Assembly (NCBI RefSeq): GCF_004010195.1
Contig: NC_057756.1
Location: forward strand, 7,158,250-7,191,207
Source: Chiloscyllium plagiosum
Lineage: Eukaryota
DNA length: 32,958 nt
Reading direction: 5' to 3'
Translations under genes and position numbers: made by a program
In this document: positions 2,819-32,071 of the stretch, one piece after another
How the letters are laid out: every line of letters begins with the position of its first letter
Position numbering within the stretch: the first letter of the stretch is position 1
Notes under the pieces: model-generated
Database searches by the model: none
Told to the model about the DNA's origin: nothing
Seen by the model: the letters and a program-made list of their open reading frames with translations, nothing else

Positions 2819-2819
2819 A

Positions 2820-3284: not shown

Positions 3285-4479
3285 GGTAGTTGGACAATGG
3301 CAGCACATGCATGGGGACACCGGTCCCTACAAATTCCCTGCCAAGTCTCACACAGTTTTGATTTGCGATTACATGAACAGTCGTACCTCGTGTTTGAATT
3401 GAAAAGCTGGATCTGCCTTCTCATAGCAGTGTGTCTCCAAGTTTTACTCCCATTGTGTCGGTAAGTGGATGGATTGGGGATGGAGTTGCTGAGAGGAGTA
3501 ATGAGCCAAGGTTATGGCGTAGGTGCATGTCGCTATTCCCTAGAGGAGGGGTTTTGAGAGGGAGTTAACAGGTCAGGGTATGAGAGAAACTGAGACAGAA
3601 GGCTCTGGTCAAGGGGACAGAGATGGAAAGGGAGTGTGTGGTGTTGGGTGTTGAGACCGAGAACATGAGGAGTGATGGCCCGTGGGGCAGAGAGTGTGAC
3701 ACAGGCATGGTATCATGGAGCGCCGCCTCATGTAGGAATTGCATGAAGTGAAACTTTTCTGAGGCAAATCACAAGGGATTCTCTCTCTTACCGGGATTTC
3801 CTCCCCTTTGTGGGCTTCTGTCTGTCTCTCTCTCTTTCTATCTTTTCCTCGCTGTGGTTTCCCTTTCTCTCTGTCCTTCTGTCTCGTTCTCTCACTACTT
3901 TTCCTCCTGGGTTTTCTCCTTCACTTGTAGTGCTGTTGTCTGTTCTTCTCTCCCTCCCTCCCTCTGTCTGTCCCACTTCCTCTCTCAGTCAAAATTCTCT
4001 CTTGTTTCCCTTGCTCTCTTCTTGGACTTTTTATTGTCGGATACATATTTATTCTAAATAGACTTAATTGTCCAGTTCGTGATAAAATGAAGTGTACATT
4101 GTGTTGGGGTTTCTGACATGTAGTCAGTCAGGTAAATTGTTTTTTGTGGTCTGCACATTGGACACAATGTCACGGTTTGTGGAATAGCGGGACTCAGTGA
4201 TCAGCCCAATCTAAGTCGTGGCAAACCAGAAAACGCTTGACAAGTCTAACTTGTTTGTAAGTGCTTTGAAGGACTGCAGGGCGATGCAGGCTGAAGTCAA
4301 CGCAGTTGTGTAACATTTACACTTGCTGTAATTCTGAACCGGAAATATTGTAAAAGGCTTATTGGGTATGCTGTATTTTGTTTTGAAGGCTAAAAATAAT
4401 GCTCACTCATTATTATGTGCATATGGAGGATAAATCTATTTTTGGCCCATTTTTAGGTTCGTCATACAAAAGATACAGA
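3285..4479 (-). repeat. Duplicated block (Siglec-like copy 0, 3' intronic part), paralogous to ~29235-30455 and in part ~15418-15810
   Basis: Shared colinear strings: gcagcacatgca..caaattccctgccaag, tgatcagccca/tgatcagcaca, aagtctaacttgtttgtaagtgctttgaa, and a CT-rich tract at the same position. Confidence 0.8.
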
Positions 4480-7400
4480 CAGGCGTTTCTGTGGCCAGCA
4501 GCGAAAAATCAGAATGGTGTGTTGTTTCCCTGGTGCCAGGATCAAGGATATCTCAAAGAGGGTGCAGAATGTTCTTAAGCGGGAGAGGGGCCAGCAGGAG
4601 GTCATTGTACACATTGGAACCAATGACACAGGAAGGGAAAAGGTTGAAATTCTGAATGGCGGTTACAGAGAGTTCGGCAGGAATTAAAAAAAAAGACATT
4701 CTTGAGAGTAGCTATACCTGGATTACTCCCGGTGCTACGAGCTAGTGAGAGCAGAAATAGGAGGATAGAGCAGATGAATTCATGGCTGAGGAGCTGGTGT
4801 ACGGGAGAAGGATTTACATTTTTGGATCATTGGAAGCTGTTTTTGGGTAGGGAAGTGACCTGTACAAGAAGGACAGATTACACTTAAATTGGAAGGGGAT
4901 GAATATACTGGCCAGGAGATTTGCTCGAGCTGCTCTAAACTTGTAAAGTTGGGGGGAGGGGTGGTGGGTGGGACGCAGGGATATAATGAGGAAAGAGATC
5001 AATCTGAGGCTTGCACAGTTGAGAATAGACGTGAGTCAAGTAGTCAGGACAGGCATGAATAAAGCAGAAAACAACTTTTATTTCAATGCAAGGGACCTAA
5101 CAGGAAAGGTAGATGAACTCAGGGCATGGTTAGGAACATGGGACTGGGATGGCATAACAATTACAGAAACATGACTCGGGGATGGACAGGACTGGCAGCT
5201 TAATTTTCCCGGATACAAATGGTACAGGAAGGACAGAAAGGAGGCCAGAGTGGAGAGGGAGTGGCTTTTTTGATGAGGGATAGCATTACAGCTATGAGGG
5301 AGGATAATCCCGGAAATCCATCCAGAGAAGTTATTTGGGTGGAACTGAGAAAAAAGAAAGGGATGATCACCTTATTGTGATTGTATTATCGACACCCTCC
5401 CCCCCACCCCACTAACAGTCAGTGGGAAATTGAGAAACAAATTTGTAAGGACATCTCAGTTATCTGTAAGAATGATAGGGTGGTTATGGTTTCCAAACAT
5501 ATCTGGGACTGCCATGGTGTTAAGGGTTCAGATGGACAGGAATTTGTGTGTAGAAGAAATTTTTCTGATTAAGTATGTGGATGTATCTACGAGAGAAGGT
5601 GCAAAACATACACTTGGGAAATAAGGCAGGGCAGGTGACTGAGGTGTCGGTGGTGGAAAAGTTAGGGCCAACGACTATAATTCAATTAATTTTAAAATAA
5701 TGATGGAAAAGGATAGACCAGATCTAAAAGTTGATGCTTATTTGGAGAAAAGCCAAATTTGACGCTATTAGGTAAGAACTTTCAAAAGCTGACTGGGGGC
5801 AGATGTTCACAGGTAAAGGGACGGCTGGAAAATGGGAAGCCTTCAGAAAAGAGATAACAAGAGACCAGAGACAGTATTTTCGTGCTTGGTTGAAAGGAAA
5901 GGCTGGTAGGTATAGGGAATGCTGGATGACAAAAGAAATTGAGGGTTTGGTTAAGAAAAAGAAGGAAGCATATGTAAGGTATAGACAGGATAGATCGAGT
6001 GAATCCTTAAGAGAGTATAAAGGCAGTAGGAGTATACTTAACAGGGAATCAGGTGGGCAAAAAGGGGACATGAGATAGCTTTGGCAGATAGAGTTAAGGA
6101 GAATCCAAAGGGTGTTTGCAAACATATCAAGGTCAAAAGGGTAACCAGAGAGAGACTGGGGCCCCTCAAAGATCAGCAAGGCAGCCTTTGTGTGGAACCG
6201 CAGGAGATGGGGAAGCTACTAAACGAGTATTTTGCATCAGTATTTACTGTGGAAAAGGGCATGGAAGATATGCAATGTAAGGAAATAGATGGTGACGCCT
6301 TGAAAAATGTCCATATTACAGAGGAGGAAGTGCTGGATGTCTTGAAGTGCATAAAAGTGGATAAATCCCAAGACCTGATCAGGTCTACCCTCGAACTCTG
6401 TGGATAGCTAGGGAAGTGATTACTGGGCCTTTTGATGAGATATTTGCATACTTAATAGTCACAGGTGAGGTGCTAGAAGTCTGGAGGTTGGTTAACGTGG
6501 TGCTACTGTTTAAGAAAGGTGGTAAGGACAAGTCAGCGAACTATAGACCAGTGAGCCTGATGTCGGTGGTAGGCAAGTTATTGGAGGGAATCATGAGGGA
6601 CAGAATGCACATGTATTTGAAAAGACAGGGACTGATTAGGGATAGTCAACATGGATTTGTGCGTGGGAAATCATGTCTCACAAACTTGATTGAGGTCTTT
6701 GGAGAAGGAACAAAGAGGTTTGATGAGGGCAAAGCAGTGGACGTGATGCATATGGACTTCAGTAAGGCGTTTGACAAGGTTCCCCATGAGAAACCGGTTA
6801 GCAAAGTTAGATCTCATGGAATACAGGTAGAACTTGTCATTTGGATACAGAACTGACTCAGAGGTAGAGGACAGAGTGTGATGGTGGACGGTTGTTTTTC
6901 AGATTGGAGGCCTGTGACTAGTGGAGTGTCACAAAGATCGGTGCTGGGTCCACTACTTTTCATAATTTATAGAAATGATTGGGATGTGAGCATAAGAGGT
7001 ATAGTTAGTAAGTTTTGCAAATGACAAAATTGGAAGTGTAGTGGAATGTGAAGAAGGTTACCTCAGATTACAATGGGATGTTGATCAGATGAACCAATGG
7101 GATGAGAAGTGGCAGATGGAGTTTAATTTAGATAAATGTGAGGTGCTACATTTTGGGAAAGCAAATCTTAGCAGGACTTGTACACCTAATGAACAGGTCC
7201 TGGGGAGTATTGCTGAACAAAGAGACCTTAGAGTGCAGGTTAATAGCTCCTTGAAAGTGGTCTTGCAGGTAGATTGGATAATCAATGAGGCCTTTGGTAT
7301 GCTTTCCTTTATTGGTCAGAATATTGAGTAGGAGTTAGGAGGTCATGTTGCAGCTATGCAGGACATTGGTTAGACCACTGTTGGAATATTGCATGCAATT

Positions 7401-7915
7401 CTGGTCTCCTTCCTATCGGAATGATGTTGTGAAACTTGGAACGGTTCAGAAAAGATTAACAAGCATGTTCCCAGGATTAGAGAATTTGAGCTATAGGGAG
7501 AGGTTGAATTGGCTATTGCTGCTTTTCCTGGAGCATCGGAGGCTGAGGGGTGACTTTTTAGAGGTGTGTAAAATCATGAGCGGCATGGATAGGGTAAATA
7601 GACATGGGGGAAGTGCATAACTAGAGGGCATGGGTTTAGAATGAGAGGGGAAAGATATAAAAAGACCTGAGGGGCAACGTTTTCATGCAGAGGGTGGTAC
7701 GTTTATGGAATGAGCTGCCGGAGGAAGTGGTGGAGGCTGGTACAACTGCAATATTTAAAAGGCACCTGGATTGGTATATGAATAGGAAAGGTTTGGAGGG
7801 ATATGGGTTGGGTGCTGGCAGTTGGGACTAGATTGGGTTAGGATATCGGTTCAGCATGGACAAGTTGGATGGAAGGGTCTGTTTCTGTGCTGTACATCTC
7901 TATGACTCTCTAACC
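4480..7915 (+). mobile_element. Near full-length decayed CR1 (HER1-like) LINE: ORF1 SGNH-esterase part, ORF2 APE endonuclease plus RT, 3' tail
   Basis: ORF1: CCFPGARIKD, VIVHIGTND, GLLPVLRASESRNRRIEQMNSWL. ORF2: YFNARDLTGKVDEL..ITET, NYRPVSLMSVVGKLLE, QHGFVRGKSCLTNL, DFSKAFDKVPH, LVRPLLEYCMQFWSP. Ends in tctatgactct. Many stops and frameshifts. The paralogous sites near 15810 and 30460 are empty. Confidence 0.96.
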
Positions 7916-7919
7916 CTAC

Positions 7920-8300
7920 GTCTGCCACTCTTTTCCAAGAAATGTGGTGGCCAGTCCCTGAAATGTCAGCATCATCAAACATGGACACTCTTTGTTATAT
8001 TTTCTACTGAGTTGTTCATTAGTAGAATCCATAATAATGAGCCAGTTCCTACTGATTGGGATAACGTACATTCTCACTTAGCTGCATCCTCAATGTTGTC
8101 AAATTGGCTGCGGGAACAACAACAACTTTGTAACGTTCCTTCTTCCAGTTAATAACAAAATCGTGCAAATGTTTCAGATTAGGTGCTTGGCATTGCGTGT
8201 GGTCAGTCGACTTTGTGACAATATCTGAAACAAAATTATTCCCACTTGTTACTGTGGCTGAGAGAAATGATGAATCAGCAACTGGCCAGTGGTATGCCTA
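7920..8300 (-). pseudogene. Siglec-like copy 0 remnant: decayed cytoplasmic exon region and flanks
   Basis: acattctcactta..aaattggctgc..aacaacaact and cgtgtgg..ctttgtgaca..ttgttactgtggctgag match 30636-30920 and 15980-16270; splice donor is mutated. Confidence 0.6.
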
Positions 8301-8449
8301 TGGGAGGGGGTGGGGGAGGGGGAGGGGGTGGGGCGGGTGGCTTGGGTTATATCGTTCCATATTATCAGCAGCTGAAATAAGCAGAATTAATCATTTGGCC
8401 AAGAAAATGACGCCACCGCAGCCTCCACAGAAATAAAGGGAAATCTCCT

Positions 8450-9316
8450 TGAAATCGACAGGAAGAAATGAATTAGGGAGATTGCAGTCCATCAAGTAGG
8501 TAGAATTGAATTTAACCACTGGGCCATTCATTAGTTTTGGTGTTGTGTTGCAAACAAGTTAACTCACACCCTATCTGCCTCACTTCAGCTTTGCTTTGCA
8601 ATAACGTTTCCTTTCAATTCATTTACCTCAGAAATGATCTGCTATATCCTCAAACGATGTTATTATTGGACAGCTCAGATTCGAAACAAAAATTGATTGC
8701 TGCTTTATCTTATTGCATTTTTCATTTAATGTGGTAACCTTTCTTTGAAAGGTAAGAGTGCAACTATGCATATTTGGCTTTTGCAATGAAAAAAGGACAT
8801 TATTAAAGGAAATGAAAATAATGAGTACGTATCTATGATCTTCACACATAAAAACATTTTGAAGTTTTCAAAGTGCGTGGCAATTTATCACAATGCCATC
8901 ACTTTACAGTCGTCAAGTACCTGAAATAGAGTTTAATTCTCTGTCTCATGAAAAGCTGTGACTTAGCTGTTTCTTTCACTCTCTAGTCTTAGGAGTTGCT
9001 AGCCTTTACTTTGATTATTCCCACAACTGAGCTGGAATATTCTTATCATTAACCAAAGACTTCTAGTTTGGATTTTTCATATTTATATTCTTACAGAAGG
9101 ATAACATGTTTTGAACAGTTCGAAATGAACTCCTCCTTGGAGGAGAATCTGTTTCACATTTTCCCACAATGAGATTTTATCATACTAATTATTAATTGAA
9201 GATTAACATTAATCCCAATTTTGGTTCAATAAAGATTCTGTTCCAAGTTTTGAAACCACTAGCATTCAGCTGTGGATAAGTTACATTTCTATGAACTGAG
9301 TGACTCCACCATGAGT
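8450..9316 (-). repeat. 3' UTR/downstream block of Siglec-like copy A, paralogous to ~28110-28929
   Basis: Colinear shared strings such as tcagaaatgatctg, tcatttaatgtggta, gcaatgaaaaa, aatctgtt.cacattt. Confidence 0.8.
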
Positions 9317-9438
9317 TCAATTCCATTTAAATGCAAAGTATTCACTTGTCTCCTCTTCCTGAGCAGGAACATCAAATTTGTGAGTTTAAAGACACAGATC
9401 ACTGAATAGAGAAGCTCCTCCCATCCACCTAATTTGAT
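9317..9438 (-). pseudogene. Siglec-like copy A terminal exon with ITIM and ITIM-like motif, frameshifted
   Basis: Branch point ctaac and acceptor cacag, then IKLGGWEELLYSVI (ITIM LxYxxI). After a 1-nt shift it reads KFDVPAQEEETSEYFAFKWN*. Length is 122 nt, not a multiple of 3. Confidence 0.72.
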
Positions 9439-9462
9439 CTGTGACTGGAAACCATGTGTTAG

Positions 9463-9677
9463 CTTTTCAATTCCAGTGAGGTGAATCAATGTCAGCGAGC
9501 TCTGAAACAATCTAGTAATCCCTCTCCTGCAATAGACTACAGCGTCTGAATCTTTTCCTGTGATCTTTCTTCCATTGAGTGTCCATGTGACGTTTACTGG
9601 GGGATTAGCTCTGACTCTGCTGATACAAGTGAAGACATTCTTGGAACTGGTCAGACCAGATACTATTATGGGTCGTT
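9463..9677 (-). pseudogene. Siglec-like copy A membrane-proximal C2-type Ig exon, 3'-truncated by deletion
   Basis: Phase-1 acceptor ttcctttttatag, then RPIIVSGLTSSKNVFTCISRVRANPPVNVTWTLNG...QSSLTL. The F-strand Cys, G strand and donor are absent; sequence runs into the last intron. Confidence 0.8.
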
Positions 9678-9879
9678 CTATAAAAAGGAACAACAGTGTT
9701 CACATGATGAGCTTTATAAGCATGCAGTTGCCACATTAACATTGAAGTGCTCTGTTTATTATTGAAGGCGATAATGTAATTAAGAAATGCAGAAAGAAGC
9801 TATTGTGCGCACCAAGTGTGCACAAACCTTCTGAAAAACATTCCAACCAGAGTCATCACTTCCGCCTTTCGAAAACCTT

Positions 9880-10099
9880 GCATTTGCCATGGCTAACCCA
9901 CCTAACCGTAAATCTCTGGGAACTACAGGGTAATATAGTTCGGCTAATCCACCTCACCTGCACATCTCCAGGAGGAAAACAGACCACTCAAAGGAAACCC
10001 ATGGAGACACTTGGAAACTGTACAAAAGCCACACAAACTGAAATCAATCCCAGGCAGTGTGAGGGAGAAGTGCTAACCACAGAGCCACTGCCGTCACCA
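9880..10099 (-). mobile_element. tRNA-derived SINE (HE1-like), decayed
   Basis: Reverse complement starts ggtgacggcagtggctctgtggttagcact..ctcaca (A-box-like head), followed by gtgtctccatgggtttcc and gatgtgcaggtgaggtggatt core sequence. Confidence 0.75.
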
Positions 10100-10739
10100 T
10101 TCACTGACAACAATTTGCTTCATGCAGTTACTCAAGTGACATGTCCCAGACCATTCCTGATCCATGCTGATCAGGTAAATTCGAGACTACCTTTCGAAGC
10201 CATTGGGCACTAGATTATATTCACAGCTAATTCGATGCAGAACAGTAAGTTTAAATCAGTTTTTGATGCCAGCAGACGTTACAGACTGTGGAAGGAAGAA
10301 CCAATCATTCCTTAGAATCTCTGCTTATTATTTAGATCAGTCATCCTTGATAAGCCATTGAATGCTATTTCCATCATGGCATCATTGGTATCCTTACTTT
10401 TAAAAAAAAATTGATTCCGCCAATTTCAGTTTTGACTTGTTCCCGTTCCAGTTGAAATGAAAACTGCCAAGATGGTTGAGTCAAGCCGAAAGTGGATACT
10501 TTCACAGCGCTTAGTCACTATGCACAAAGTGGCAGGAAACTGTTGAGTACCAAGTGCAATGCAAACTTGACGCTGAATGAATAGTGTAAACAGTGTTGTA
10601 GATGTATTGAAATTGAAGCAAGGTGAATTTTATGTCGTTTGTATCATTTTCAAGTCGCAATATTTTGTTATGCACTAATTTTATTAGTGATTTGCATCTT
10701 TGGAACATAATATCCGTCTCAGTGGAAGGAATATTTGCA

Positions 10740-10978
10740 ATGATGGACAGTTTGCATCAAATCAATTTCAGAGCATTTAAGAAGCAGTCCCCATTGAAAT
10801 GCAGCAAGATCTGAACCCTCAGGCTTGAGGTGACAAGTGGCAGGAAGCAATCGTGCCACACAAATGTCAGTCACTGACCATCGCCAATAAGCGACAATTC
10901 AGTCATTGTCTGTTAGCATTCGATGGCATTAGCAAAATTAAATCGTCCAGTGGCAGCATTCTGGACGTTACCATTAAC
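10740..10978 (+). mobile_element. Old L2/CR1-group LINE fragment, paralogous to ~16850-17075
   Basis: tgaaatgcagcaaga..caggcttg..cacaaatg..tgaccatc.ccaataa shared with the copy B fragment. Confidence 0.6.
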
Positions 10979-12240: not shown

Positions 12241-12349
12241 AGTTTGAAGGCTTCAGTTTAACTTGCTGATTAGATGTTAGAGATGCACGAGATTACATTT
12301 GGGGAAAAAGCATGCATCCCCCAATAACACTTCATTGCCATCTGGAGAT

Positions 12350-13262: not shown

Positions 13263-13551
13263 ATTCGACATGGACATGAAGAGTTTCTTGATCGATCACC
13301 ACTCCAACAGCCCCTGTAAATTCCCACAGCAGGTTCCGTCAGTGATTGTCAGCTGATGGAGTGAAGGTGAACGTTGATAAAGCAATCCATGAATTGTCTA
13401 AATGTTTCCTGCTTTTATCTAAGTTTGAATAGGAATGAGATTCTGCCCCGTATCAAATTCAGCTCAAAATCACAACTGTGGGTGACTGAACAGATCAGGC
13501 CCACTGGTTTACCAACAAACAATTGTGCAGAGACAGCGATTTGAGGGTTCT
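13263..13551 (-). pseudogene. Siglec-like copy A second Ig (C2-set) exon
   Basis: Acceptor ttccactgatag and donor T|gtaggt (phase 1-1). NPQIAVSAQLFVGKPVGLICSVTHSC, a frameshift, then SWIALSTFTFTPSADNH*RNLLWEF..QETLHVHVE, matching the Siglec domain-2 pattern LTFTP..DHG..L.C. Has an internal stop and Cys to Trp. Confidence 0.85.
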
Positions 13552-14927: not shown

Positions 14928-15204
14928 CTGAACCTCTGACGTCTGTATAGGGAATGAAAGGTTTGGAAGATACTGGAGACACCAATCCCTGGTAACTACG
15001 CAACATTCAGATTTGGAAGGAGTTCGTCATTGAAGCTTTGGCGTTTGGTCAAAGTATTGATAATCCCTCCCGAACCTGATTGTACTCAAAGCTCCAGGAA
15101 CAGCCACGGTCCAGGAAGGCAGATCATTCCGTCTGTTCCGAGGGACATTATGTTTATTCCATTAATGTTGGTCCAGTCAGCAATGACTACATCACACGCG
15201 TAAA

Positions 15205-15420
15205 GTTTCACCCTGATGTATGACAACCTTCATTTATCTTTTTGGCGTGTTTTATTCATGATGTACATTGATTTAGCATCAGCTTCCACCTCAAATCTGT
15301 TCTCCCTTTATATTCAGAGTTCGTACTTTCTGGATCTGCAGAACTGTAGACAATGATTAAACAACGGGTTCCCAGTTTTGGAGCCCCCTTTAACCACAGA
15401 ATCATTGTATTTCTGCCATG
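15205..15420 (-). pseudogene. Siglec-like copy A V-set exon, internal fragment
   Basis: GRNTMILWLKGAPKLGTRCLIIVYSSADPESTNSEYKGR, a shift, TDL..NQCTS*IN, then YIRVKL. Homologous to 22390-22600. The 5' half is missing. Confidence 0.78.
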
Positions 15421-15990
15421 ATAAAATGAACTGTGTATTCTGTTGGGGTTCTGAGCTGTAGTCAGTCAGTTAAATCGGTTTATGTGCTATACACACAATC
15501 GCCCATGTCACTGTCTTTGGAACCGTAGGGTTCAATGATCAGCCCAAACTGAGTTGTCACGAACTGGAAAAAGTGTGATTTGAAAACAATATCACAAGTT
15601 TAACTTATTGGTAAATGCTTTGAAGTACTGCAGATTCTTGCAGACGGGAATGAAAGCAATTGAGCAACATTTACACTCTTCACATATCGAACTTGTACTA
15701 CTGTAAAATGGCTAATATATGTCAATGTTTAACGTTAAAAAATCACTGTTGTTATTTGTATGTGAAGAATGTCTGTCCTTGAGCTATTTTCAAGTTTGTG
15801 ACACAGAAGATGTCTGTGACTCATTTCTCAAAACAGTAACTCAATGAGTCAACTCCAAGTATAGAATGAGGTGTGCAGTCCCTGATGCGTAACCTCCACC
15901 AAACAACGGCATCACTCATTGGACCTTTCACAGTGTTGGTCAGAACCAGAATCTAAAATGATTTGGACTAACTTCTGTGTTCTCATTTAC

Positions 15991-16111
15991 CTCTGTATTC
16001 AATGGGTGTTGTGTCACATGAGTTGTGGGTTTTGCAACAACTGTGTCTCTTAATGTTAATAACAAAATTGTTAAGAATTTTCGGATGAGATGGTTCAAAA
16101 AAGTGATTTTA
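15991..16111 (-). pseudogene. Siglec-like copy B putative first cytoplasmic exon
   Basis: Acceptor tgtgcacag and donor GAG|gtaaat; 121 nt, phase 2 to 0, fitting between the TM exon and the tail exon. The paralog at 30649 has GAG|gtaagt. Confidence 0.5.
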
Positions 16112-16700: not shown

Positions 16701-16821
16701 CTCTGCAATTTCACTGCAATCAGAATCAGACTGATAATGGCCAAAGCTGTTCCTACGAGTCTGACAATTATCCAGGTACAGCATTATCCAGGTACAGCAT
16801 TATCCAGGGTAGAAGGGTTAT
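16701..16821 (-). pseudogene. Siglec-like copy B transmembrane exon, frameshifted by a 16-bp tandem expansion
   Basis: WIIVRLVGTALAIISLILIAVKLQ then AG|gtacga (phase 2). (attatccaggtacagc)x2 plus attatccagg at 16767-16808. Acceptor reads caa. Confidence 0.75.
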
Positions 16822-19513: not shown

Positions 19514-20409
19514 AATTCACATCCAATCTGAGCTTCTTGAGTGATCCACTAGCGACTGTAAGTTCACAGAGCAGGGACAACCCGTAATGGTCGGCAGGTG
19601 TAGTGAGGAGCTATTTTATATAACAGTTCAGGAATTCTTGAAATTGTTCCTGAGTTGTACTGAAATCTCAGTGTTATGGAAGAAGCCAGACCCCCTCAAA
19701 ACATTCCAAATGTCTGCCTAGGCCCTAACTTTTCTAGTTGTTTTAAACAGGTGTATGGTGCATATTCCAGGATGCAGCTGGCCCAACAACTCATTTTGTA
19801 GCAAAACAGCAGTTATTCACAGATTACCGAATGAAACACGAACAAAAGAGAATCGAATCTCAAATAAATTAACCTATCTGAAAACCCAGTCGACTCTATT
19901 GCAACTTAATTATGCTGTTCCAAATACTTGCGATATCCCCATAAACCACCCCGCTGCAAACAGCTAAATACATACACTAATCCTTACAGGAGAGAGATAT
20001 GAATCTAGGAACCTTTTTTTTTATCTTGAGTCGCTTTCCTTGGCCGGCAGCACCAGACTACTCGCGAAAACCAAACCAGAAAAAAAACCCCTGAACTGAG
20101 TGAACTGACCACTTCCCTTGCATTGTCCAAGTGTTTAAAGAAAACCTAAAAACCTTTTCAAGTAGATATTTCCGGACATATTGAAACCTCTGCTTTTAGG
20201 ACCCCTCTCGAAAAGAAAACCAAGTGCAAAATAACCTTATTAAAGGAGAAGCATCGTCACAGCAAATCCTGATTGAATAGATATTAGCCTCACCCCTGGT
20301 ATCCATTTCAGTTCAAAACCACAATTTGAATAACTGTGGGTGACTGAACAGTTCAGGTTCACTGGTTTTCCATCAATAAATACACCAGAGACTGCAATTT
20401 GTGGTTTCT
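19514..20409 (-). pseudogene. Siglec-like copy B second Ig (C2-set) exon, split by a solo LTR (20262-20409 and 19514-19671)
   Basis: Acceptor ttccactgacag, then KPQIAVSGVFIDGKPVNLNCSVTHSYSNCGFELKWIPG. After the LTR: TTPADHYGLSLLCELTVASGSLKKLRLDVN with a gc donor. Confidence 0.82.
19672..20261. mobile_element. Solo LTR-like element (TGTTAT...GTCACA) inserted in an Ig exon
   Basis: Same family as 12350-12992 (gccagaccccctcaaaacatt and ttaaaggagaag). Confidence 0.8.
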
Positions 20410-20449
20410 CTGTCAGTGGAAAGCCAAAACAGTATAAAGGAAGATTTTA

Positions 20450-20626
20450 TTTCTGGTTTGGTTTGGTTTTCGCGATTGGTCTGTTTGGTGCTGCCGGCCA
20501 AGGAAAGCGGCTCAAGATTAAAAAAAAGTTCCTAGATTCATATCTCTCTCCTGTAAGGATTAGTGTATGTAGTTAGCTGTTTGCAGCGGGGTGGTTTATG
20601 GGGATATTGCAAGTATTTGAGACAGA
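20450..20626 (-). repeat. Local inverted duplication of ~19915-20082
   Basis: Near-exact reverse complement, e.g. ccccataaaccaccccgctgcaaacagctaa and tacatacactaatccttacaggagagagatatgaatctaggaac. Confidence 0.92.
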
Positions 20627-21942: not shown

Positions 21943-22320
21943 GTTCAACTACCAGGGCGCTGGAAGAATCATTGCTGATACATTACTTCCCAACCCATGA
22001 CTTCCGGTATCGTGAGGGACAAGAGTGGCAGGAACTTGGGGACACCACACCCAGAAAGAACCACTGGAAGCCACGCAATATTCAGAATTGGAAGGAGTTC
22101 AGCACTGAAGTAAATGCACTGTGCCAAAATACTGAGGAAATCCCTCCCTAACCTCACTGTGGGTACTCTAATCTCCTGGAACTGCCATGTTTGAGGAGCG
22201 AAGGTCGATCCCTCTAATGAAACTATGAATATTCAACAAATGTTGGTTCAGACATCACTGACCACATCACATGCATGAATTTAAAAAAAAAGACAGTCCT
22301 GAAATGAATGAAACTCCAAG

Positions 22321-22718
22321 CCACAATATAGTCGGAGACAGGAATATTGTTAGTGTAGACATCCGATACATTCATGGTATTCATAATCTTCACCCTGATG
22401 TAATAGTCTCCTTCATCTCTCTTCCTGATGTGTTATATTAACAATGAAGACTGTTGCATTGTCAGGTTCTCCCTCAATTCTGTTCTAACTTTAAACTTAG
22501 GTTTCATACTGTCTGGATCTCTGGGATTATAGGTACTGCTAACACCTCGAGTGCCCTGTTCAGGACCTCCCTTTAACAGAGAACCTCCAGATTTCTGCCA
22601 CTGGCCAGGTAACAAAATGCACATGGGATCTCCGCACTTGATCCGATCTCCGCACATGACCCAATCACTGCTAAAACGTTCCGGTGAACTTTCAGAGATC
22701 GTCAGGAACTCTCGACAG
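22321..22718 (-). pseudogene. Siglec-like copy B N-terminal V-set exon
   Basis: Branch ctaac plus acceptor ttttcttattcag, then VESS*RSLKVHRNVLAVIGSCAEI[GSSAEI]PCAFCY..., a shift, LKGG..YNPRDP..KFKVRTELRENL..QQSSLLI*HIRKRDEGDYYIRV. This fits the Siglec V-set pattern G.C..IPC.F.Y / D.G.Y.FR. Stops, a frameshift and an 18-bp duplication. 3' boundary approximate. Confidence 0.85.
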
Positions 22719-22860
22719 CTGAATAAGAAAAGTGGGTTAGACTCCCATTGAAATCTATAGTGAGAACAAAATTAAACTATTTCATTAAATGGCAGTCGAA
22801 TATTGTGGTCTAAATCTACAAACATCAACTATTACATAAATATCAATAACAACAACATAC

Positions 22861-23714
22861 CCATCAAATTATTATTGATAATTAACTCTTACAACATGGC
22901 AGTGAATCCTTCTGCTAATTAAACCAAGGACCAAGAAAAGCTCACCTCACCTTGTAATCTGTTAAACCAAGAGTGACAGAGAATTCAAAAATTCCAGTTT
23001 TTAAAATAATAATATCAATTTATTCTTCAACTCTAAAAGTGAACAGTAAACAAAAAGTATTCACAACACTAAGCCCCCATCTCCTAACTGCTTATTATCT
23101 GCCTGCAACTCTATAACAATATGCTGTTCCAATAAACACACTTATTTAAATTGCATCAATTTAATTTCAAAAGCACACAGTGGCTGTCGTCTCTGTTGTC
23201 TGTCTTCTTCCAGCTGAAGATCTGCCTTGGTCATCTTCTTTCTTTTACTACGAAGATGCTTCATTTGAAAAAGGCATCTTTGAGAGAGAGTGTTTTAGAT
23301 TGACAGTCTTTCTTGATGGCAGGTACTCCCTCAATGGCAGTGGCTCTGTCTGACTTTTAAAAATACTGTGTTTTTAACCCTTATAATCGGATCATCTCAT
23401 TGGTTCGATGTTGGCAAAAAACACAAAGCTCAAACTCGATTGGGTTTTACTATCCTGAGGCAGAATTTAGACTGATTGTTTAAATTTGAAATGTTGTCAA
23501 AACAGCAACCAACTCGGTGTCTGCTTCACAGCCAAATGTTACATATTTTCAATTTTCCATTCCACTGTGAGACTGCTAGCTAGTCATATGGCAGCTGCTT
23601 GTAAGCTCTCGGTGCAAACTACATTCACTCTCTCTTAAAGGTACAGTACACACCTTCAACTTCACAACGTAACAAAGTACAATAAAAACTCAGTTTGAAG
23701 AAATTAAAATGCAT
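22861..23714 (-). pseudogene. Possible leader exon of copy B, split by the solo LTR
   Basis: Removing the LTR and one TAAC gives MHFNFFKLSFYCTLLIINNNLM then G|gtatgt (phase 1), 142 bp upstream of the V exon acceptor. Could be chance. Confidence 0.3.
22887..23669. mobile_element. Solo LTR of a second family, 4-bp TSD
   Basis: TAAC|TCTTACAAC...CACAACG|TAAC, with decayed TGTT...AACA termini. Confidence 0.78.
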
Positions 23715-23729
23715 ACTCCTGCATTTGTT

Positions 23730-24150
23730 TCAGTCTTCAACAAATGTCGTTCTGGACTCCAAATCTTAAGTTTGCATAACATCTTAGCCAAGTTGCGAAT
23801 CTATATCAGGCAACATTTGCACATTCCGGGAATAACTTCAGTTCTGGTCTCTTGTGAGACACAACTGATTCAGTTAATACTAATTGCAAAAGGGTTGGCT
23901 CTAGCCTGATGGTTTGAAGTGATTTTCGTAAAAATTCAATTTGATTGGATCAATGGTTTGCAATTAGAAAACGGCTGCCTGAGTGAAGTCTGAATTAAAT
24001 ATCTGGAATTTTATGAGGAACGTCTAGGGACTATCAAAGGAGCAAAGGCCACACTGCATCTTGACCAGTCATCAATTCCACGATTTGGAAAGCCTCATCC
24101 ACTGCCATTTGCCTTACTGCAAAAGTGGAGGCAGAAATCAAGAGGCTTCA
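23730..24150 (+). mobile_element. Gypsy/Ty3 pol remnant (protease end to RT start)
   Basis: VFNKCRSGLQILSL..KLRIY..ITSVLVSCETQLIQL, KIQFDW and LGTIKGAKATLHLDQSSIPRFGKPHPLPFAL..KVEAEIKRL. Confidence 0.78.
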
Positions 24151-24159
24151 TTGCTTTAT

Positions 24160-24413
24160 TGACCTGAAGAATAACGTTTTCACGCAGAGGCTGGTACACG
24201 TTTGGAACAGGCTGCCAAGTGAGTTAGTGGAGGCTGACACAATTACTTCATTGAAAAGGCAAGTGGATGGGTATGTGAATAGGAAGAATTTAGAGGGATA
24301 TGCGACAAATGCTGGCAAATGGGACAAGATCAGATTGTGATACCTGGTCGGCATGGACCAGGTTGAATGGAAGGGCCTGTTTCTGTGCTGTATAGGTATA
24401 TGATTCTATGATT
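24160..24413 (+). mobile_element. CR1 3' end
   Basis: FTQRLVHVWNRLPSELVEADTITSLKRQVD, ending in tatgattctatgatt. Confidence 0.9.
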
Positions 24414-24692
24414 TCTGCAATCTATTGCTCACAGGGATTGTCCTACTATCAGGCCACTATGGCTGTAAGCCTTTTGTTTGGCGTTTTCCTATGAAGCCTC
24501 AGAACTGAATAATTGGAATGCAATATGGACTTGTAACATATATTCGCAATCAAATCAGAAATAAGAATGATGCAACTTTAACATTCCCCTGGGAATCCAG
24601 TAGCGCGTAAAAGAGTTTCGAAACTCATTAATACACTGTTAAATTCAAAGGTTTTGACTTCATCACCCAGGAACAGATACTCCATACGCAAA

Positions 24693-24759
24693 ATGCTCCA
24701 ATTGTTCACTATTATTGTTAAAGTATACTACATCAGTACTGCTGTTATTGCCATCCCAG
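24693..24759 (+). CDS. GPR139-like GPCR, coding exon 1
   Basis: aaaATG, MLQLFTIIVKVYYISTAVIAIP then G|gtaagg; 67 nt, phase 1. Supplies the first half of TM1 (YY...IP). Confidence 0.85.
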
Positions 24760-25344
24760 GTAAGGTTTTAAAAAATAAATATTTATTAGATGTGTGCATC
24801 GCTGGCTAAAACCAGCATTTACGGCACTACGGGAAAATTTAAGAGTAAAGCACATTGTTGTGGATCAGGAATCAAATTTTAGCCAGACCAGGTAAGCATG
24901 CCAGTTTCATTCCCGCAAGAACGTGAGTGAAACAATTGAATTTATCCAAACAATCGAGAATGGATTCGTGGTCATCATTACCTCTTAATTCCAGATTTTG
25001 CTTGCATTGAATTCAAATTTGAAAATCTGCTAATGTATAATTGGGTTCACTGTAGTTCAGTTGGCATTGCCATCATCAGACTCGCATTGCCCAGGATTGT
25101 TCCCAGTTTTGACTTAACCTGTTGTGGGTGGTTACATTGACTTGATGACATGAAGGAAATCCACTTTTGTAGAATGGCTTTTCCTTCAAGAAATACTACA
25201 AAGGAAGACTTGCTGACATTTTCTAATCCGAGGAAGTTACATGAGTGGAAAGCAGTGAAAGTCATTCGCCAACAATTCGCTCGTACTGTGAATGTTTTTC
25301 GAATTTTAAACGTAATTAGTGAGTGTAAATTGAAGTTTTCGGAC

Positions 25345-26105
25345 AGTTAGATAAATATGAGGTGCTAAATCCTGGAACGGCAAATCAAAGCAGGACTTAC
25401 ACACTGCTTGGTACGGTCCTGCGGAGTGTTTATGAACAAAGAGACCATGGGTTGTAGGTTCATAGTTCCTTCAAAGCAGAGTTGCAGGTAGATATTATAG
25501 TCAAGACGGCATTGGGTACGCTTGTCCTTAGAGATCAGTGCATTGATCATAGGAATTGGGAGGTGATGTTGCAAGGTGCAGGACATTGCTTCTGCCATGT
25601 TTGGAATACTGTGTGCAATTGTTGGCTGTATGAAAAATGTGGTCAAACCTGGAAAGGTGCAGGAAAGATTTGGAAGCATATCGCCAGGTTTGGAGGGTTT
25701 GACTAATATGTAGAGGCTGAATAGACTGGTTGTCTTTTCCCAGGAGCATCGGAGGCTGAGTGCTATGGGTAGTGTAAATAGTCAAGATTTGTCACCCACG
25801 GTATGGCAGTTTAAACCTAGAGTGTTTAAGATGAGAGCAGAAAGATTTAAAAGGGGTCCAAGGGGCCAAAGTTTTCATGCAAAGGATGGTATGTATATGA
25901 AATGAGCTGCCACAGGAGGTGGTGCCACTGGTACAATTAGAGGATGTACAAGGTTTTTAGAAGGGTGGATGAATAGGAAGAATTTTGAGGATAAGGGACA
26001 AATGCTGGCATATGGGGCTAGATTAATTTAGGATATCTGGTCAGAATTGGTGAGTTTGCCTGAAGGGCATGTTTCTATGTTATACATCTTTATGACTCTA
26101 AGTGA
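25345..26105 (+). mobile_element. Decayed CR1 3' fragment in the GPCR intron
   Basis: Colinear with 7130-7910 (ttagataaatatgaggtgct, ttggaatactgtgtgcaatt, ggagcatcggaggctgag, tatgactcta). Confidence 0.85.
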
Positions 26106-26930
26106 CTGAAAGGGATTGTTAAGAGCTTGGAGAACAGAATAAACAGCTTGTTCTGCACACACAGAGAATAATCCTTCTGGAAGAACAAGTTCAACTATAT
26201 ACTTTATCCCCCAATATAAATCTTTGTTTTGTCTCATTTTCAAGGCAGACCTTGTTCTACGGTATCAATTAACAGCTCTGTTTTTTTTAGGTTGATGTTC
26301 ATCAATGATTTAATTCATCTTAGATCACATTTCGGTTTCTCAATGATTATCCCAATGGCCTTCATGTATTTAATGCCGGAATTGAGGTCGACTTGTTGAT
26401 AGGGCGTGGGTATGCTCTCTTTTTGTGGGTGCTAGTGTTAACAACATAAGAATTTGTCACATAAGGCGGGATGATGTAATGCAATGGTGTCAATTCCAAG
26501 GTTCTGGGTGTCATATTTGCAATACGGATATAATTCTATGTCATCCTGCATTGTGACCATGTTAAAATGTGTCCTTAAAACATTTTGGCCATTGCTTCTT
26601 TTGCTGCACGTCGCATGTTTTTTGTTTTGCTTCCATGAATAGAATTATGTCAGTTAAGCCAATAGAACACGTTCAAACTGATTCTGTATGCAACAGTAAC
26701 ATATCAAAATTGCCATTTTACACCTCCACAGCCATCTTGCATTACTTCATGTTCAATACCACTCAAGCTCTGCCTTTGAACATTGGATGTAGGTTAATGT
26801 GGGATGGAATCAAGATTAAAATTCTTTTCACTTTGTGATATTCTTCCTGAGCACCCTATTGCTATCGCCACTAAAATGCAATTATGTTTGACCTACAATT
26901 TCCAAACTGTTTTTAGCTTTCCTTCCACAG

Positions 26931-27862
26931 TTAATGCACTGGCAATTGTGATTCTGTCCCACGGAAGATGCGGCCTCTCCAGATGCACGACTCATTACCT
27001 AACGGCCATGGCAACAGCGGATCTGATGTTCATTGTCACTGACAGTGTACTGTATGAGCTGAATCGTTACTTTTATCAGGGATCATTCCTGCAACTCACA
27101 CCTGCATGCATTGTGATTTACTTCTTACTTTATGTGAGTTCAGACTGTTCTGTCTGGTTCACTGTCACTTTCTCCGCTGATCGGTTTGTGAGTATATGCT
27201 GCCGGGATCTGAAACTGAAATATTGTAACGTCAAAGCAGCAGCTGTTATTCTTTCAACAACTTTCACTCTTTTCTTTCTGAAAAATGTTCCTATTTTCAT
27301 TACACGGGAACCAATGATTGTCGTTGACAATGTACACTGGTCTTGTCAAATAAAAGTCAGCTATTTTACTGAACCCGGATGGATGGTTTATGATTGGTTT
27401 GATAAGGTGTTAACACCCTTACTCCCATTCATTTTAGTTTTAATCTTGAATGCTATGACAGTCAGATACGTTTTAATAGCAAATCGGATCCGTCAAGGAT
27501 TGAAGTTCCAGAACACGGAAGAGAAGCGCAGTGATCCTGAGATGGAGAGCAGGAGGAAGTCAATGATTTTACTGTTCGCCATATCGACTAACTTCATATT
27601 GCTGTGGTCACCATATGCAATAAATTTCTTATATTATCGAATTGCAGGAATTGATCCCAGATCTTACAATGACAGTTTGTACGTATTTGAAAGGTTTGGA
27701 GCAATGCTACTAAATCTGAGTTGCAGCACAAATACGTTTATTTATGGAGTAACCCAGTCGAAGTTCAGAGAACAGTTCATTAGCGCTATAAAATACCCAC
27801 TGATTTCAATCAGCAGAGTCTTTTCTATTAGAATGAATTCATGGCAATCCACAAGACAGTAA
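26931..27862 (+). CDS. GPR139/GPR142-like class A GPCR, coding exon 2 (spliced product 332 aa)
   Basis: Acceptor ctttccttccacag, then VNALAIVILSHGRCGLSRCTTHYLTAMATADL, TM3 Cys (PAC), SVWFTVTFSADRF, ECL2 Cys (WSC), PLLPF..ILN, LLWSP, CSTNTFIY. Open to TAA; 67+932=999 nt. Family-level call only. Confidence 0.92.
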
Positions 27863-28109
27863 TATATACAACTATTTTCCTGAGTAGAGCATTGAATAGT
27901 AAATATCTATTTGCTGATTTGTATTAAAAGTATTTGCATAAAAGTACGAACAGGCAATGTGACCTTTCCTTCATTTGGATGTTATTTTACTTTGCATTGC
28001 CATAATATTGAGACAAGATTTTTAATGTTGTCCTGACTTAAGCGTAATGAATAATTTGCTCAAGAAAGCTAAAATATTGTGCCATCCACCGACGTGAAGG
28101 AAATACTCA

Positions 28110-28929
28110 AGAAATTAGAGGAAGAACTGAATTAGAGAGATTGCATTCTATCAACCTGTTACCACCGAATCGTCAGTGGTGGTGTTGTCTTTCAAATAAA
28201 GTAATTCGCATTTTATATGCCTCATGTAAGTATTGTTTTGCAATAACATTTCCTCTCATTTAATTTGCATCAGAAATGATCTGTTCTGATCCCAAATATG
28301 TTGCTATTGGACAGAGCATATTCAAAACGGAAATCTAGATCGCCAGTTCATCTTTATTTAATTTCTCATTTAATGTGGTAGTCTTTCAGCGAAAGATAAG
28401 TTTGCAACTCTGCATGTTTGGTTTTAGCAATGAAAAAGGAAACTAAGGAAATGAGAAACTATAGATACTGGTCACATATAAAAAGCGTTGTAAGTATACA
28501 TCCATCGATCAGACACCTAGGAGAGAGTTTCATTCTATATCACATCCATAGCTCGAAGTAACTGTTTCTATCACTTCCTGGTCTTGGGAGTTTGTTAGCC
28601 TTCCCCTTGATTATTCACATAAGTGAACTTAAATATTCTTTGCTTCAAATGGCCCCGTCTGATCGATAACCGACGTTTTCTGACACATATGTTCACATTA
28701 AATTACTAGCAGCAGGATAATATGTTTCAAACAGTTCTGAATTAACTCTTCTCTGGTGGAAAATCTGTTCCACATTTCCCATTCATGAGATTTTGTCACG
28801 TTAACTGTTAATTAAAGGCTAACATTCCAACAACACTTGCAGTTGCATAAAGTTTCTAATCCAAGTTATGAAACGACTCGTGTTAAGCTGTGCATCAGTG
28901 CATTAGGGGAATCCAGCTTGATCTCATTT
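28110..28929 (-). repeat. 3' UTR/downstream block of Siglec-like copy C
   Basis: Colinear with 8450-9316. Confidence 0.8.
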
Positions 28930-29037
28930 TCATTTAATTGCATCGTATTCACTGGGCTCCTCTTTCTGGGCTGGAACATGAGCGTTGAAGAAAGAGACTG
29001 CTGAGTCCAGAGCCTCGTCACTTTCATCCACTTTGGT
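28930..29037 (-). pseudogene. Siglec-like copy C terminal exon
   Basis: TKVDESDEALDSAVSFFNAHVPAQKEEPSEYDAIK*: open, 108 nt, distal SEYxxI motif retained, proximal ITIM Tyr replaced by Asp. Acceptor reads caa where copy A has cag. Confidence 0.72.
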
Positions 29038-30134
29038 TTGTGACAGAAAACCATGTGTTAGGTATGTATCTATTAAGACAGATAACAGCATATTACTTGT
29101 ACTGGGATGGTATCTTGCAAGCGTTAAAAAACCACACAAGGACCGACCTTGTGTGCAATCGACAGGAACCACTGTAGTCGTTCACCAGACCTCTTCCAAC
29201 AGCAATTTCCAAACACAACCGTCTACAGTTAAGAAGGACAACCGCAGCACATGCACAGGAATACCTCCCCTTGCAAATTCCCTGCCAAGCCACACACAAT
29301 CCTGACTTGCAATTACATCAGCATTTCTTTTCCGTGTTTGAATCCAACGGTTTGATCTGCCCTTCTCATAGCATTGCATCTCAGGAAATTTACTCCCGTT
29401 GTGGTCCAGACATGGATGGCCATGGGTGGGGTTGATGGACCTACTGATTGGTGGGGTAATTAATAAATGACAGGTGATAGGTGGGGGGTGGGGGCATGTC
29501 CTTATTCTTGGAGGAAGGGGATTTGACTGGAAGTTGACAGGGAGGAGATGAGAGGGGCTGAGACACAGGAGGCTGAGCGAGAGGACAGAAGTTCACAAGG
29601 AGGGTGTGGTGTGAGATGGGAGACAGAGAAAGGGAGGAGGTAAACCCCGCAGTGCAGAGAGTGTGGCATGGGTTGGCGTTATCACAGAGTGGGAACCTCA
29701 AGTAGGAAACATATGAAATGAGGCTTTTCAGGGGCAAGTCCTGTCTCTTTCTCTCTCTCTCTCTCTCTCTTCCTTGTTCTCTCTCACATCGTTTTCTGTC
29801 TCCATTTCTCCTCCTGGATTCTCTGTCTCTCCTTCGCTTTTACTGGTGTTATAAGTCATTATCTTTCTCCCTCCTTGTCTGTCCCACTCCGTCTCTAGCT
29901 CATCTTCCTGTTCATTTTATAGTTGGATAAATATTTATAACAAGTAGGTGTATTTGCCCTTGTCATGACGAAAAGAAATGTATGTGCTGTTGGAGTTCTG
30001 GGCTGCAGTCGTTCAGGTAAATTGTATACACATTAGGCACATGTGTCATGATTAGTCAAATAGTGCAGTTCAATGATCAGCACAAACTGAGTGATGGCAA
30101 GCCAGAAAATGCTTGATATGAAAACCACAGTACA

Positions 30135-30247
30135 GCTTCGCCTGAGGCCCAGTGCAGATTGTACCTAGTTAGGGTGACAAAACGGATGGAAATGAACCTC
30201 CCAGCTCAGAACCTCAAACTGAGCTACAAATCTTCTCAAAACTCGCT
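30135..30247 (+). mobile_element. Miniature Penelope family B pLTR insertion, 12-bp TSD, decayed hammerhead
   Basis: AACCACAGTACA at 30123-30134 and 30248-30259. Similar to 2678-2815 (cagcttcgc, tacctag, cagctcag, ctgagctacaaa). Paralogs lack it. Confidence 0.82.
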
Positions 30248-30648
30248 AACCACAGTACAAGTCTAACTTGTTTGTAAGTGCTTTGAATTACTGTAGAGTG
30301 GAGACAAAACAATTGAGCAACATTTGGAACTATAATAAAACGCAAGTTGGCATGCACTGTAATTTTTTTGCAAGTTAATCAAATGTTCAATCTTGTTATT
30401 ATGCACGTGTGCAAGATAAATTTACATTTGAGCCATTTTAAAGTTTGTGACACAGAAGATGTCTCTGACTCATTTCCAGGACTATTTCGCTCAGCGAGTC
30501 ACCTCTACGCTGTGGACTGAGGTGGACACTTCCTGACGTATATGCTGCATCAAACAGGGGTAATGCACGTTGGACTTTCTCTTGAGCTGGTTCGAAGCAG
30601 AATCAAAAATGATGGGACAGTTCTATCTGATTTGACATTCTCACTTAC

Positions 30649-30759
30649 CTCCGTGTTCAATGGGCGTTGTGCCAAATTGGCTGCAGAGCAACAACAACTG
30701 TGTCTATTTCGTTCTTTTTGATAATATTGTTAAGATTTTCAAATGAGATGTTTTTCATA
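30649..30759 (-). pseudogene. Siglec-like copy C putative first cytoplasmic exon, decayed
   Basis: Ends AQRPLNTE then gtaagt. Homologous to 15991-16111; acceptor reads cat. Confidence 0.45.
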
Positions 30760-31404
30760 ATGTGCGAAACAATCAATAGAAGCAAGTCTTTCAGGGAATT
30801 GGCATTCCGTGTGGACAGTGAGCTTTGTGACATTAGTAAGATAAAATCTAATATGTACCTGCACTGACTTGTTACTGTGGCTGAGGGAAGTGATGGATCA
30901 TCAATGGTTAGTGCGATGCTTACCGGGGATTGTAAGGTTTTTTCAATCCCCTATTAGCTGTTAGGAACAAAGGCTCCTGTGGTGCAATCTCAACCACTGG
31001 ATTTGAGGATTTTAGGTTCATTTAGCACCGAATTCTGGAGTATAGGGGTATTGGAAAACGTTGATTTAACTTGTAACTGATACACCCATAAATTATGACA
31101 TTCCTTCCTAATGGGGGTCCTATGACTGTTGTGGTTACTTCAGTACCTTTGGGGAGGAGCGATGAGGGCTCAAGTCCCTTCTACACTAGAGATGTGTAAT
31201 TATAGGCTGACTTGAAATATTGAGAAACAACCTCTCCTCCACGAAATTGCCCCCTTCTTAATCCTCAGCTCAGATGGAGTCTCAGGAATCTCAGAGTAAA
31301 CCATTTTAACTGAGACCTCTATATATGCAGTTATTTCATGTTCTCAGCTTTAAAGGGCAGTCTATGATACCTGAGTTTAAAAACAATGTAGGAAAAACAC
31401 ATAC

Positions 31405-31489
31405 ATTTGCACTCTTAATACAATCAGAATCAGACTGATAACAACCAAAGCTGTCTCTTTGGGGATGACAATTATCCAGGGAAGGCTTC
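31405..31489 (-). pseudogene. Siglec-like copy C transmembrane exon, splice sites intact
   Basis: Acceptor ttttctgaatattcctag, SLPWIIVIPKETALVVISLILIVLRVQ, then AT|gtatgt; 85 nt, phase 1 to 2. Ig exons would lie beyond the right edge. Confidence 0.78.
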
Positions 31490-32071
31490 CTAGGAATATT
31501 CAGAAAAGACAGGGTTCCAAGAGTATGACTTGGTAATGACATGAAATTTATATGAATGAAAATACGCCTTCCTAATTACTGACATAAAACTGTGTAGTTA
31601 AACTTGCTCTCTTTTTGAAATGTGAGATGGCCTAGCGATCCTGAGATTGTAGATAATGTGTTGGAGACATGTTTTGAAATCCCAGTTAAATTGTGGGTGG
31701 AATTCAAATGTAAATATTATATTCGGGATTCAAATGCGGTGTCAGTAATGCTGAACCTAACAACCAAGGCAGACTGATGGAGCAAAGGAACGTTGAAGTC
31801 ACGGGAATTAAACCTGCAGTCTCAACCCAGTCTTGCTAAGATGTGGTTTCAGATCTACAGTAATACATTTAACTCATCTTACCTCTGAAATATACCAATA
31901 GAGGTCAGTCCTTTCTTTTCAATGGGCTAGGTTCAGCTAGGAGTGGGGTAACAAGTGCTGATGCATGACAAGGGACTGGATTGATTAGGAGTAGAATAAT
32001 TAGACTTCAGAAGGTGATGAAAGGAAGGGGACCTAATAGATTCTGACAGAACTAGACAGGGAACATATAGG

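Follow-up and report, generated by a model that had tools for sequence, protein, structure and literature searches.

A tandem array pairing GPR139-like receptor genes with leaderless Siglec remnants in the Chiloscyllium plagiosum genome

A two-gene repeat unit and its copies in the window

The 32,958-bp stretch of the Chiloscyllium plagiosum genome described here (hereafter the window; G000:C47:7158250-7191207) contains one intact plus-strand gene for a GPR139-like G-protein-coupled receptor (GPCR) and, on both sides of it, broken minus-strand exons of genes resembling those for Siglecs (immunoglobulin-like lectins that bind sialic acid). C47 coordinates given below refer to the same contig, of which 7.08-7.87 Mb, 6.58-6.70 Mb, and smaller stretches were examined; positions without this prefix are those of the window. 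The minus-strand repeat blocks are colinear and share 64-78% identity in a self-comparison, in agreement with a preliminary description of this DNA. That description recognized Siglec genes only and missed the intact GPCR gene at 24693-27862, which is part of the repeat unit. Across ~240 kb, 12 copies of GPCR exon 2 alternate with Siglec remnants (C47:7.134-7.349 Mb) in one arrangement throughout, and the repeat unit (hereafter the cassette) is therefore a GPR139-like GPCR gene together with a convergent Siglec remnant. The array directly displays a two-gene unit in which the Siglec lacks its leader exon, a junction is shared between copies, and the two genes have decayed to unequal extents. 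The features identified in the window, in which the Siglec-like units are designated 0, A, B, and C from left to right, are as follows.

3292..4323, minus strand: remnant of the last intron of unit 0, matching 29236-30296
8082..8148, minus strand: cytoplasmic exon remnant of unit 0, the sole exon left of this unit; both splice sites lost
9317..9438, minus strand: tail exon of unit A; one frameshift
9460..9677, minus strand: membrane-proximal (MAG domain-5-like) C2 exon of unit A; 3' end deleted
13263..13551, minus strand: first C2 exon of unit A; splice sites kept, two frameshifts and one stop
15188..15431, minus strand: V-set exon of unit A, middle part only; one frameshift and one stop
15991..16055, minus strand: cytoplasmic exon remnant of unit B; acceptor lost
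16701..16785, minus strand: transmembrane exon of unit B; acceptor lost
19514..19685, minus strand: first C2 exon of unit B, 3' piece; one frameshift and two stops
20270..20409, minus strand: first C2 exon of unit B, 5' piece; exon split by an insertion
22321..22718, minus strand: V-set exon remnant of unit B; two frameshifts, two stops, donor lost, F-strand arginine (Arg) kept
22719..24692, no strand: duplication junction, with a Siglec intron-1 remnant to ~22882, ~840 bases matching neither parent, and GPCR upstream DNA from ~23724
24693..24759, plus strand: exon 1 of the GPR139-like GPCR; ATG, 67 nt, phase 1, donor GT, intact
26931..27862, plus strand: exon 2 of the GPR139-like GPCR; acceptor AG, open to the stop, forming with exon 1 a 332-amino acid 7tm_1 protein
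28924..29037, minus strand: tail exon of unit C, ending ~1.07 kb from the GPCR stop; acceptor and proximal tyrosine lost, distal SEYDAI kept
30649..30717, minus strand: cytoplasmic exon remnant of unit C; acceptor lost, frameshifted
31405..31489, minus strand: transmembrane exon of unit C

When scored against the exons of a complete paralogue located at C47:6.62-6.64 Mb, only 1 of the 13 aligned Siglec exon remnants in the window, namely the transmembrane exon of unit C, is clean, i.e. retains both splice sites and an open frame. Remnants of all six exon types named in the preliminary description (V-set, C2, C2, transmembrane, cytoplasmic, and tail) were found. Every unit is broken and incomplete in comparison with the complete paralogue, and none is a gene: unit A lacks the start and end of the V-set exon and the transmembrane and cytoplasmic exons, and unit B lacks the membrane-proximal C2 and tail exons. 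Unit 0 is reduced to its cytoplasmic remnant and intron, with no tail exon found in the window, and unit C has only its transmembrane, cytoplasmic, and tail exons inside, its immunoglobulin (Ig) exons being located 7-10 kb outside. A fourfold repetition of the exon set and working splice signals, as read in the preliminary description, were not confirmed. The proximal immunoreceptor tyrosine-based inhibitory motif (ITIM) reads LLYSVI in unit A, where it is followed by a frameshift, and its tyrosine is gone in unit C, where the distal SEYDAI is kept; the proposed combination of a proximal ITIM and a distal S/TEYxxI motif is found in the complete paralogue. The F-strand Arg is present in both V-set remnants.

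Because a contig from another public run (the kind of run is not on record) matches 22200-22904 with one differing letter and no gap, the lesions in the V-set exon of unit B are unlikely to be assembly errors. The longest open stretch of the V-set remnant gave no match in Pfam, and a search of solved structures with the broken C2 exon returned weak Ig matches only. A loss of the cytoplasmic acceptor shared across the array was considered and rejected, since the acceptor is kept in other copies. The rightmost unit of the array is likewise not intact, having lost the V start and leader and carrying stops and a frameshift. Two segments (19915-20078 and 20459-20625), which are 92% identical and inverted relative to one another, lie on either side of the 5' half of the first C2 exon of unit B and probably represent a mobile element. 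Decayed retrotransposon fragments, which we take to be reverse-transcriptase-like and endonuclease-like, occupy positions 1-3285 and 4500-7900, where the tail exon and intron of unit 0 would be expected.

The window GPCR is a class A receptor with a 7tm_1 domain, encoded by a two-exon gene with an open frame of 332 residues after splicing. It belongs to a shark family annotated as 'probable G-protein coupled receptor 139' (of 2375 candidates, 1487 reach E <=1e-60, the best with 82% identity). The nearest solved structure is that of GPR139, and the likeness to true GPR139 is weak: a close relative of the window GPCR matched it at E 1e-12, and no true GPR139 match to exon 2 of the window copy was found at 1e-12. 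Six of the 12 cassette GPCRs are complete with exon 1, and the open cassette exons are mostly 75-79% identical to the window copy. A further 11 GPCR copies occur at C47:7.44-7.64 Mb with a spacing of ~20 kb, and no Siglec DNA was found between them. The nearest relatives in the database, from other bamboo sharks, cluster with the Siglec-free copies. The contigs that bear the closest GPCRs and those that bear the Siglec relatives are of equal length in Stegostoma and Heterodontus, which is a hint, no more, of an old linkage between the two genes.

The missing leader exon, the shared junction, and unequal decay

No Siglec leader exon was found in the window junction (22719-24692), nor in any of the nine cassette copies that could be tested, i.e. 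those whose V start can be placed. In these nine copies, alignment scores for the leader (20-26) stayed below the maximum obtained with shuffled sequences (32-35), whereas the complete gene scored 143. The leader was seen at two loci only, both outside the cassettes, namely in the complete gene and before the V exon at C47:7696272. When the nine copies were scanned independently for a substitute leader of any kind, a single weak candidate turned up in one of them, and no replacement common to the copies. In six of the nine copies, the match to Siglec intron 1 breaks off at -211 to -215 (-168, -168, and -145 in the other three), and homology to the DNA upstream of the leftmost GPCR starts at 211-214 in four copies and at 228 in a fifth; the window copy carries the ~840 extra bases at its junction. 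No Siglec lies upstream of the leftmost GPCR, and several kilobases of native Siglec upstream DNA remain with the rightmost Siglec, whose leader was removed by a separate deletion; these are the expected ends of a tandem series. We infer from this pattern a tandem series whose founding breakpoint lay in Siglec intron 1. Because the leader is missing and the shared breakpoint lies where GPCR upstream DNA begins, a single duplication is likely to have copied a whole GPCR gene together with a decapitated Siglec. In addition, a 15.9-kb block containing units A and B and a GPCR is present twice with 89% identity and with lesions in common, indicating that already-dead Siglec copies were multiplied.

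The two genes of the cassette differ markedly in their state of preservation. In the copies located below C47:7.35 Mb, to which the lesion counts apply, none of the 33 Siglec Ig exon pieces is clean, with 103 lesions in 2699 codons (3.8 per 100), whereas 7 of the 12 cassette GPCR second exons are clean, with 19 lesions in 3376 codons (0.56 per 100). In codon models, the omega values of the Siglec exons were 0.72 (V), 0.77, 0.85, 1.12, and 1.02, and neutral simulations run through the same pipeline (six runs each) gave 0.71-1.04 for the V exon and 0.85-0.99 for the membrane-proximal C2 exon. For the seven open cassette GPCRs, omega was 0.52 (likelihood-ratio statistic against omega 1, 34.6); pairwise counting gave 0.43 for all 12 cassette GPCRs and 0.40 for the 7 open ones. 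The Siglec exons thus evolve near neutrally and the GPCRs are constrained. Distances between the V/intron segments follow those of the next GPCR (r 0.67, p 0.0003, 9 pairs). The proximal tyrosine is lost in 5 of the 10 array tails. Two single-cell RNA runs, of which only ~2% and ~6% were sampled, yielded 52 partial reads in repeat-rich bins and none, respectively.

The preliminary description saw here a lineage-specific expansion of sialic acid-sensing receptors resembling CD33-related Siglecs, which evolve by birth and death. On such a birth-and-death reading, each Siglec copy would have worked at first, have diversified in response to pathogens, and have been lost only afterwards, with an incidental GPCR beside it. 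The exons are indeed still recognizable, the F-strand Arg is present in seven of the nine cassette V pieces that cover its site, the distal tyrosine is kept in all 10 array tails, the V-exon omega is 0.72, and several intact family members exist in other sharks. However, the absence of the leader from all nine testable copies and their one shared breakpoint already contradict this scenario, and near-neutral evolution beside a constrained GPCR, the lack of a single clean Ig exon piece, and the re-duplication of dead units leave it very improbable. Because the Siglecs are all broken and leaderless and the GPCR is often intact in the same repeat, the array is likely to be a receptor expansion that carries dead Siglec fragments, not an immune expansion.

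Recombination alone might also have multiplied the unit, the extra GPCRs bringing no benefit and the surviving ones merely being slower to decay. Such neutral amplification would fit the 6 of 12 cassette GPCRs that are dead or partial, the relaxed omega of the cassette GPCRs compared with the Siglec-free copies (0.52 vs 0.33), and the deletion of two GPCRs inside the window. Against it stand seven exons that have remained open over 300 codons, most of them at 75-79% identity to the window copy, whereas no more than 5 of 2000 simulations left a neutrally evolving GPCR exon open. This contrast argues for long-lasting selection on several copies at once, and we regard purely neutral growth as unlikely. 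Alternatively, a regulatory role could explain why the headless Siglec segment was retained, or the segment may at first have been transcribed backwards from the GPCR promoter with a new first exon. In six of the nine copies, the V exon and the GPCR start face each other head to head across a steady 1.1-1.2 kb; the two stop codons are separated by 1.1-1.8 kb, with polyadenylation-like hexamers on each strand. Both arrangements would suit this idea. There is, however, no shared replacement leader, conservation is equal or better in the 11 further GPCR copies that have no Siglec DNA, and the Siglec remnants have been freely deleted, so that a retained function of this kind can hardly be expected.

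The unit consists of a whole GPR139-like gene and a leaderless Siglec; in the best explanation, which we consider likely, one tandem duplication cut Siglec intron 1 and was multiplied about a dozen times, and the receptor was preserved by selection while the Siglecs decayed. An ancestral GPCR and Siglec would have stood tail to tail, and the duplicated stretch would have had one end ~1 kb upstream of the GPCR start and the other ~213 bases upstream of the Siglec V exon. With these endpoints, each new unit would comprise the entire GPCR, upstream DNA included, and a Siglec deprived of promoter, start codon, and signal peptide. Unequal crossing-over would then have multiplied the unit, later deletions would have trimmed it, twice removing the GPCR inside the window, and selection would have acted on the GPCR product only. 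Siglec function would rest on the complete paralogue at C47:6614863-6637488.

Several observations weigh against this explanation. The 11 Siglec-free GPCRs have a lower omega (0.33) than the cassette GPCRs, half of the latter are dead or partial and some are deleted, and in a quick protein tree they do not form one clade, the tree being star-like with low support. The V-exon omega differs from 1 (statistic 8.4), lying at the low edge of the six neutral simulations, and the distal tyrosine is retained in every one of the 10 tails. The congruence between V/intron segments and GPCRs leans on two recent sister pairs, and the corresponding correlation for the tail region is not significant (r 0.25, p 0.11, 8 pairs). 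About 5% of the array consists of N letters, and constraint on the GPCRs does not show that selection drove the amplification.

The Siglec-like family and its intact members

The family from which the remnants derive has an N-terminal V-set domain, C2-set domains, and one transmembrane segment, as seen in the complete paralogue and its relatives; the window holds broken exons only. The proposed Siglec-like identity was confirmed: the best solved matches of the V-set are sialoadhesin and Siglec-8, the best whole-protein match of the complete paralogue is MAG (E 4.7e-29), and in a fold comparison MAG again came out best for the predicted model (mean pLDDT 74.6) of P0005, a Mustelus relative. The expectation of functional members nearby was also borne out, since one complete paralogue lies 0.5 Mb from the window (C47:6614863-6637488), and intact family proteins are on record in seven other shark species.

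The complete paralogue shows the exon phases originally proposed for the window (V 1-1, C2 1-1, transmembrane 1-2, cytoplasmic 2-0, tail 0). The database entry for its protein in Chiloscyllium plagiosum (P0002) bears the name 'myelin-associated glycoprotein-like', but the public model is wrong at the N-terminus, where it has 95 unrelated residues; the true leader exon is located at C47:6614863-6614908. With this leader, the gene encodes 526 residues without a stop, provided that one dead C2 exon is skipped. Its tail carries VLYSAV (proximal ITIM) and SEYAAI (distal), and its V-set retains the F-strand Arg and the strand B and E cysteines, the cysteine for the domain-2 bond being replaced by serine. 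The product is predicted to be an inhibitory surface receptor of the ITIM type.

A V-set tree was built from 121 domains, taken from 150 listed matches, earlier matches, and 14 exons of this genome, after matches that were weak or short had been set aside; among the anchors, none for Siglec-15 was identified. In this tree, 21 sequences form the family (88.6/81), apart from the MAG, sialoadhesin, and mammalian CD33-related anchors. Its grouping with shark CD22-like sequences in one clade (97.5/99) dissolved in a 42-row tree. In an approximately unbiased (AU) test on the latter (5000 replicates, flagged as too few), none of the five sister-group constraints was rejected. The likeness to CD33-related Siglecs noted earlier stands for the tail motifs. 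The best trees set the family apart from mammalian CD33-related V-sets, the constraint to group with them not being rejected (p-AU 0.14); CD33-related membership is neither supported nor rejected. Grouping with MAG was not rejected by the AU test alone (p 0.18), but orthology to MAG was rejected, because the MAG anchors are separate in both free trees and are far closer to MAG structures (E 1e-43) than is the family. The family is thus Siglec-like and closest to MAG by sequence and fold.

Siglec V-sets are characterized by a cysteine pair on strands B and E and by a further cysteine bonding to domain 2, which are present in 19 and 16, respectively, of the 20 family rows shown; the essential F-strand Arg is present in 10, and the G-strand region diverges from the sialoadhesin, MAG, and CD33-type rows. 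In Stegostoma, P0011 (with an ITIM) and P0009 (with a transmembrane lysine and no tyrosine motif) share 310 of 321 ectodomain residues, and in Mustelus, P0005 and P0013 (with a transmembrane arginine and an 11-residue tail) share 360 of 416. Judged from automatic gene models, these appear to be inhibitory/activating receptor pairs like Siglec-5/14. A protein named 'nectin-4-like' (P0201; G000:C43:11430469) also falls inside the family; it lacks the Arg and has two tyrosine motifs.

Other Siglec-like loci were found on the same contig. A second family at C47 5.65-8.43 Mb (L068, L070, L072-L075, L079, L083, and L085) comprises nine V exons that are open and carry the Arg as well as both cysteine features, and one apparently complete gene with an ITIM-type tail (C47:7787017-7826607). 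It groups weakly with CD33-related V-sets (72.5/65) and is a better candidate for a working immune expansion than the present array. A plus-strand relative of the rightmost unit (C47:7656231-7696651) has a leader and an open V exon, and an open C2 exon lies on an unplaced contig (C96166:1241-1537). The lysine-bearing transmembrane exon of this relative is broken by a (TTAGA)n run, and its scrambled-looking exon order is perhaps due to assembly.

Significance and comparison with known systems

An immune expansion cannot be read from a row of immune-gene look-alikes, and tallies of shark Siglecs based on such arrays would be inflated. The shared junction is a clean record of the growth of one cluster in a very large and little-described shark GPCR family, and selection on each receptor copy can be gauged against the dead Siglec DNA, an internal neutral control. 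Should transcripts confirm that the Siglec-like receptors of sharks occur in such pairs, this design, known from primates, would date back to the cartilaginous fishes. A broader scenario, offered tentatively and somewhat doubtful as a whole, is that cartilaginous fishes have their own Siglec-like family, in which inhibitory/activating pairs evolved apart from those of mammals and half of the members lack sialic acid binding; here, the family would have collapsed to about one working gene, while an adjoining undescribed orphan GPCR was amplified under selection and a dozen headless Siglec copies remained as a record of the duplication.

The Siglec family may already be partly described in papers on the evolution of CD33-related Siglecs in fishes. 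In the full-text literature searched, no paper was found on shark Siglec clusters, the shark GPR139-like family, or this cassette, and term searches of bioRxiv 10.1101/2025.06.08.657570, PMC11979771, and PMC13358205 found no mention of shark Siglecs or GPR139. The tandem-cluster tables of the first of these and the gene-family files of PMC8455134 may list these families. The text of PMC8455134 describes a paucity of GPCRs in cartilaginous fishes and names Siglecs once. The essential Arg and paired Siglecs are defined in sections of PMC6288428, and the ITIM signature is given in PMC7226832, according to which CD33-related Siglecs are absent from fish, sharks not being named in the relevant passage.

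The shark family resembles MAG (Siglec-4) in its V-set, C2, and MAG domain-5-like membrane-proximal domains, but identity is only ~22-26%, the true MAG V-set forms its own branch, and the shark family repeats the membrane-proximal domain and is multi-copy. With CD33-related Siglecs (Siglec-5, -8, -10, and CD33), it shares the proximal ITIM, the distal SEYxxI, and a tandem cluster, and the apparent shark pairs resemble Siglec-5/14 and 11/16 as treated in parts of PMC6288428; in contrast, the mammalian V-sets form a separate clade and the Arg is conserved in only half of the shark relatives. Shark RefSeq models named 'myelin-associated glycoprotein-like', 'sialic acid-binding Ig-like lectin 5/13/14', or 'sialoadhesin-like' are intact members of the same family under automatic names that are inconsistent between species, whereas the window copies are leaderless pseudogenes. 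The window GPCR is a member of the shark 'probable G-protein coupled receptor 139' family but is here coupled to a Siglec fragment. A structural parallel is the RCCX module of the human major histocompatibility complex, a tandem module in which C4 is copied whole and its neighbours are copied as truncated fragments. Like RCCX, the shark array combines one whole gene with a partial-gene passenger, but RCCX comprises one to four modules, compared with about a dozen here, and the genes are unrelated. Partial-gene passengers in tandem modules are thus of a known kind, and the pairing of a GPCR with a Siglec and the scale of the array appear to be new.

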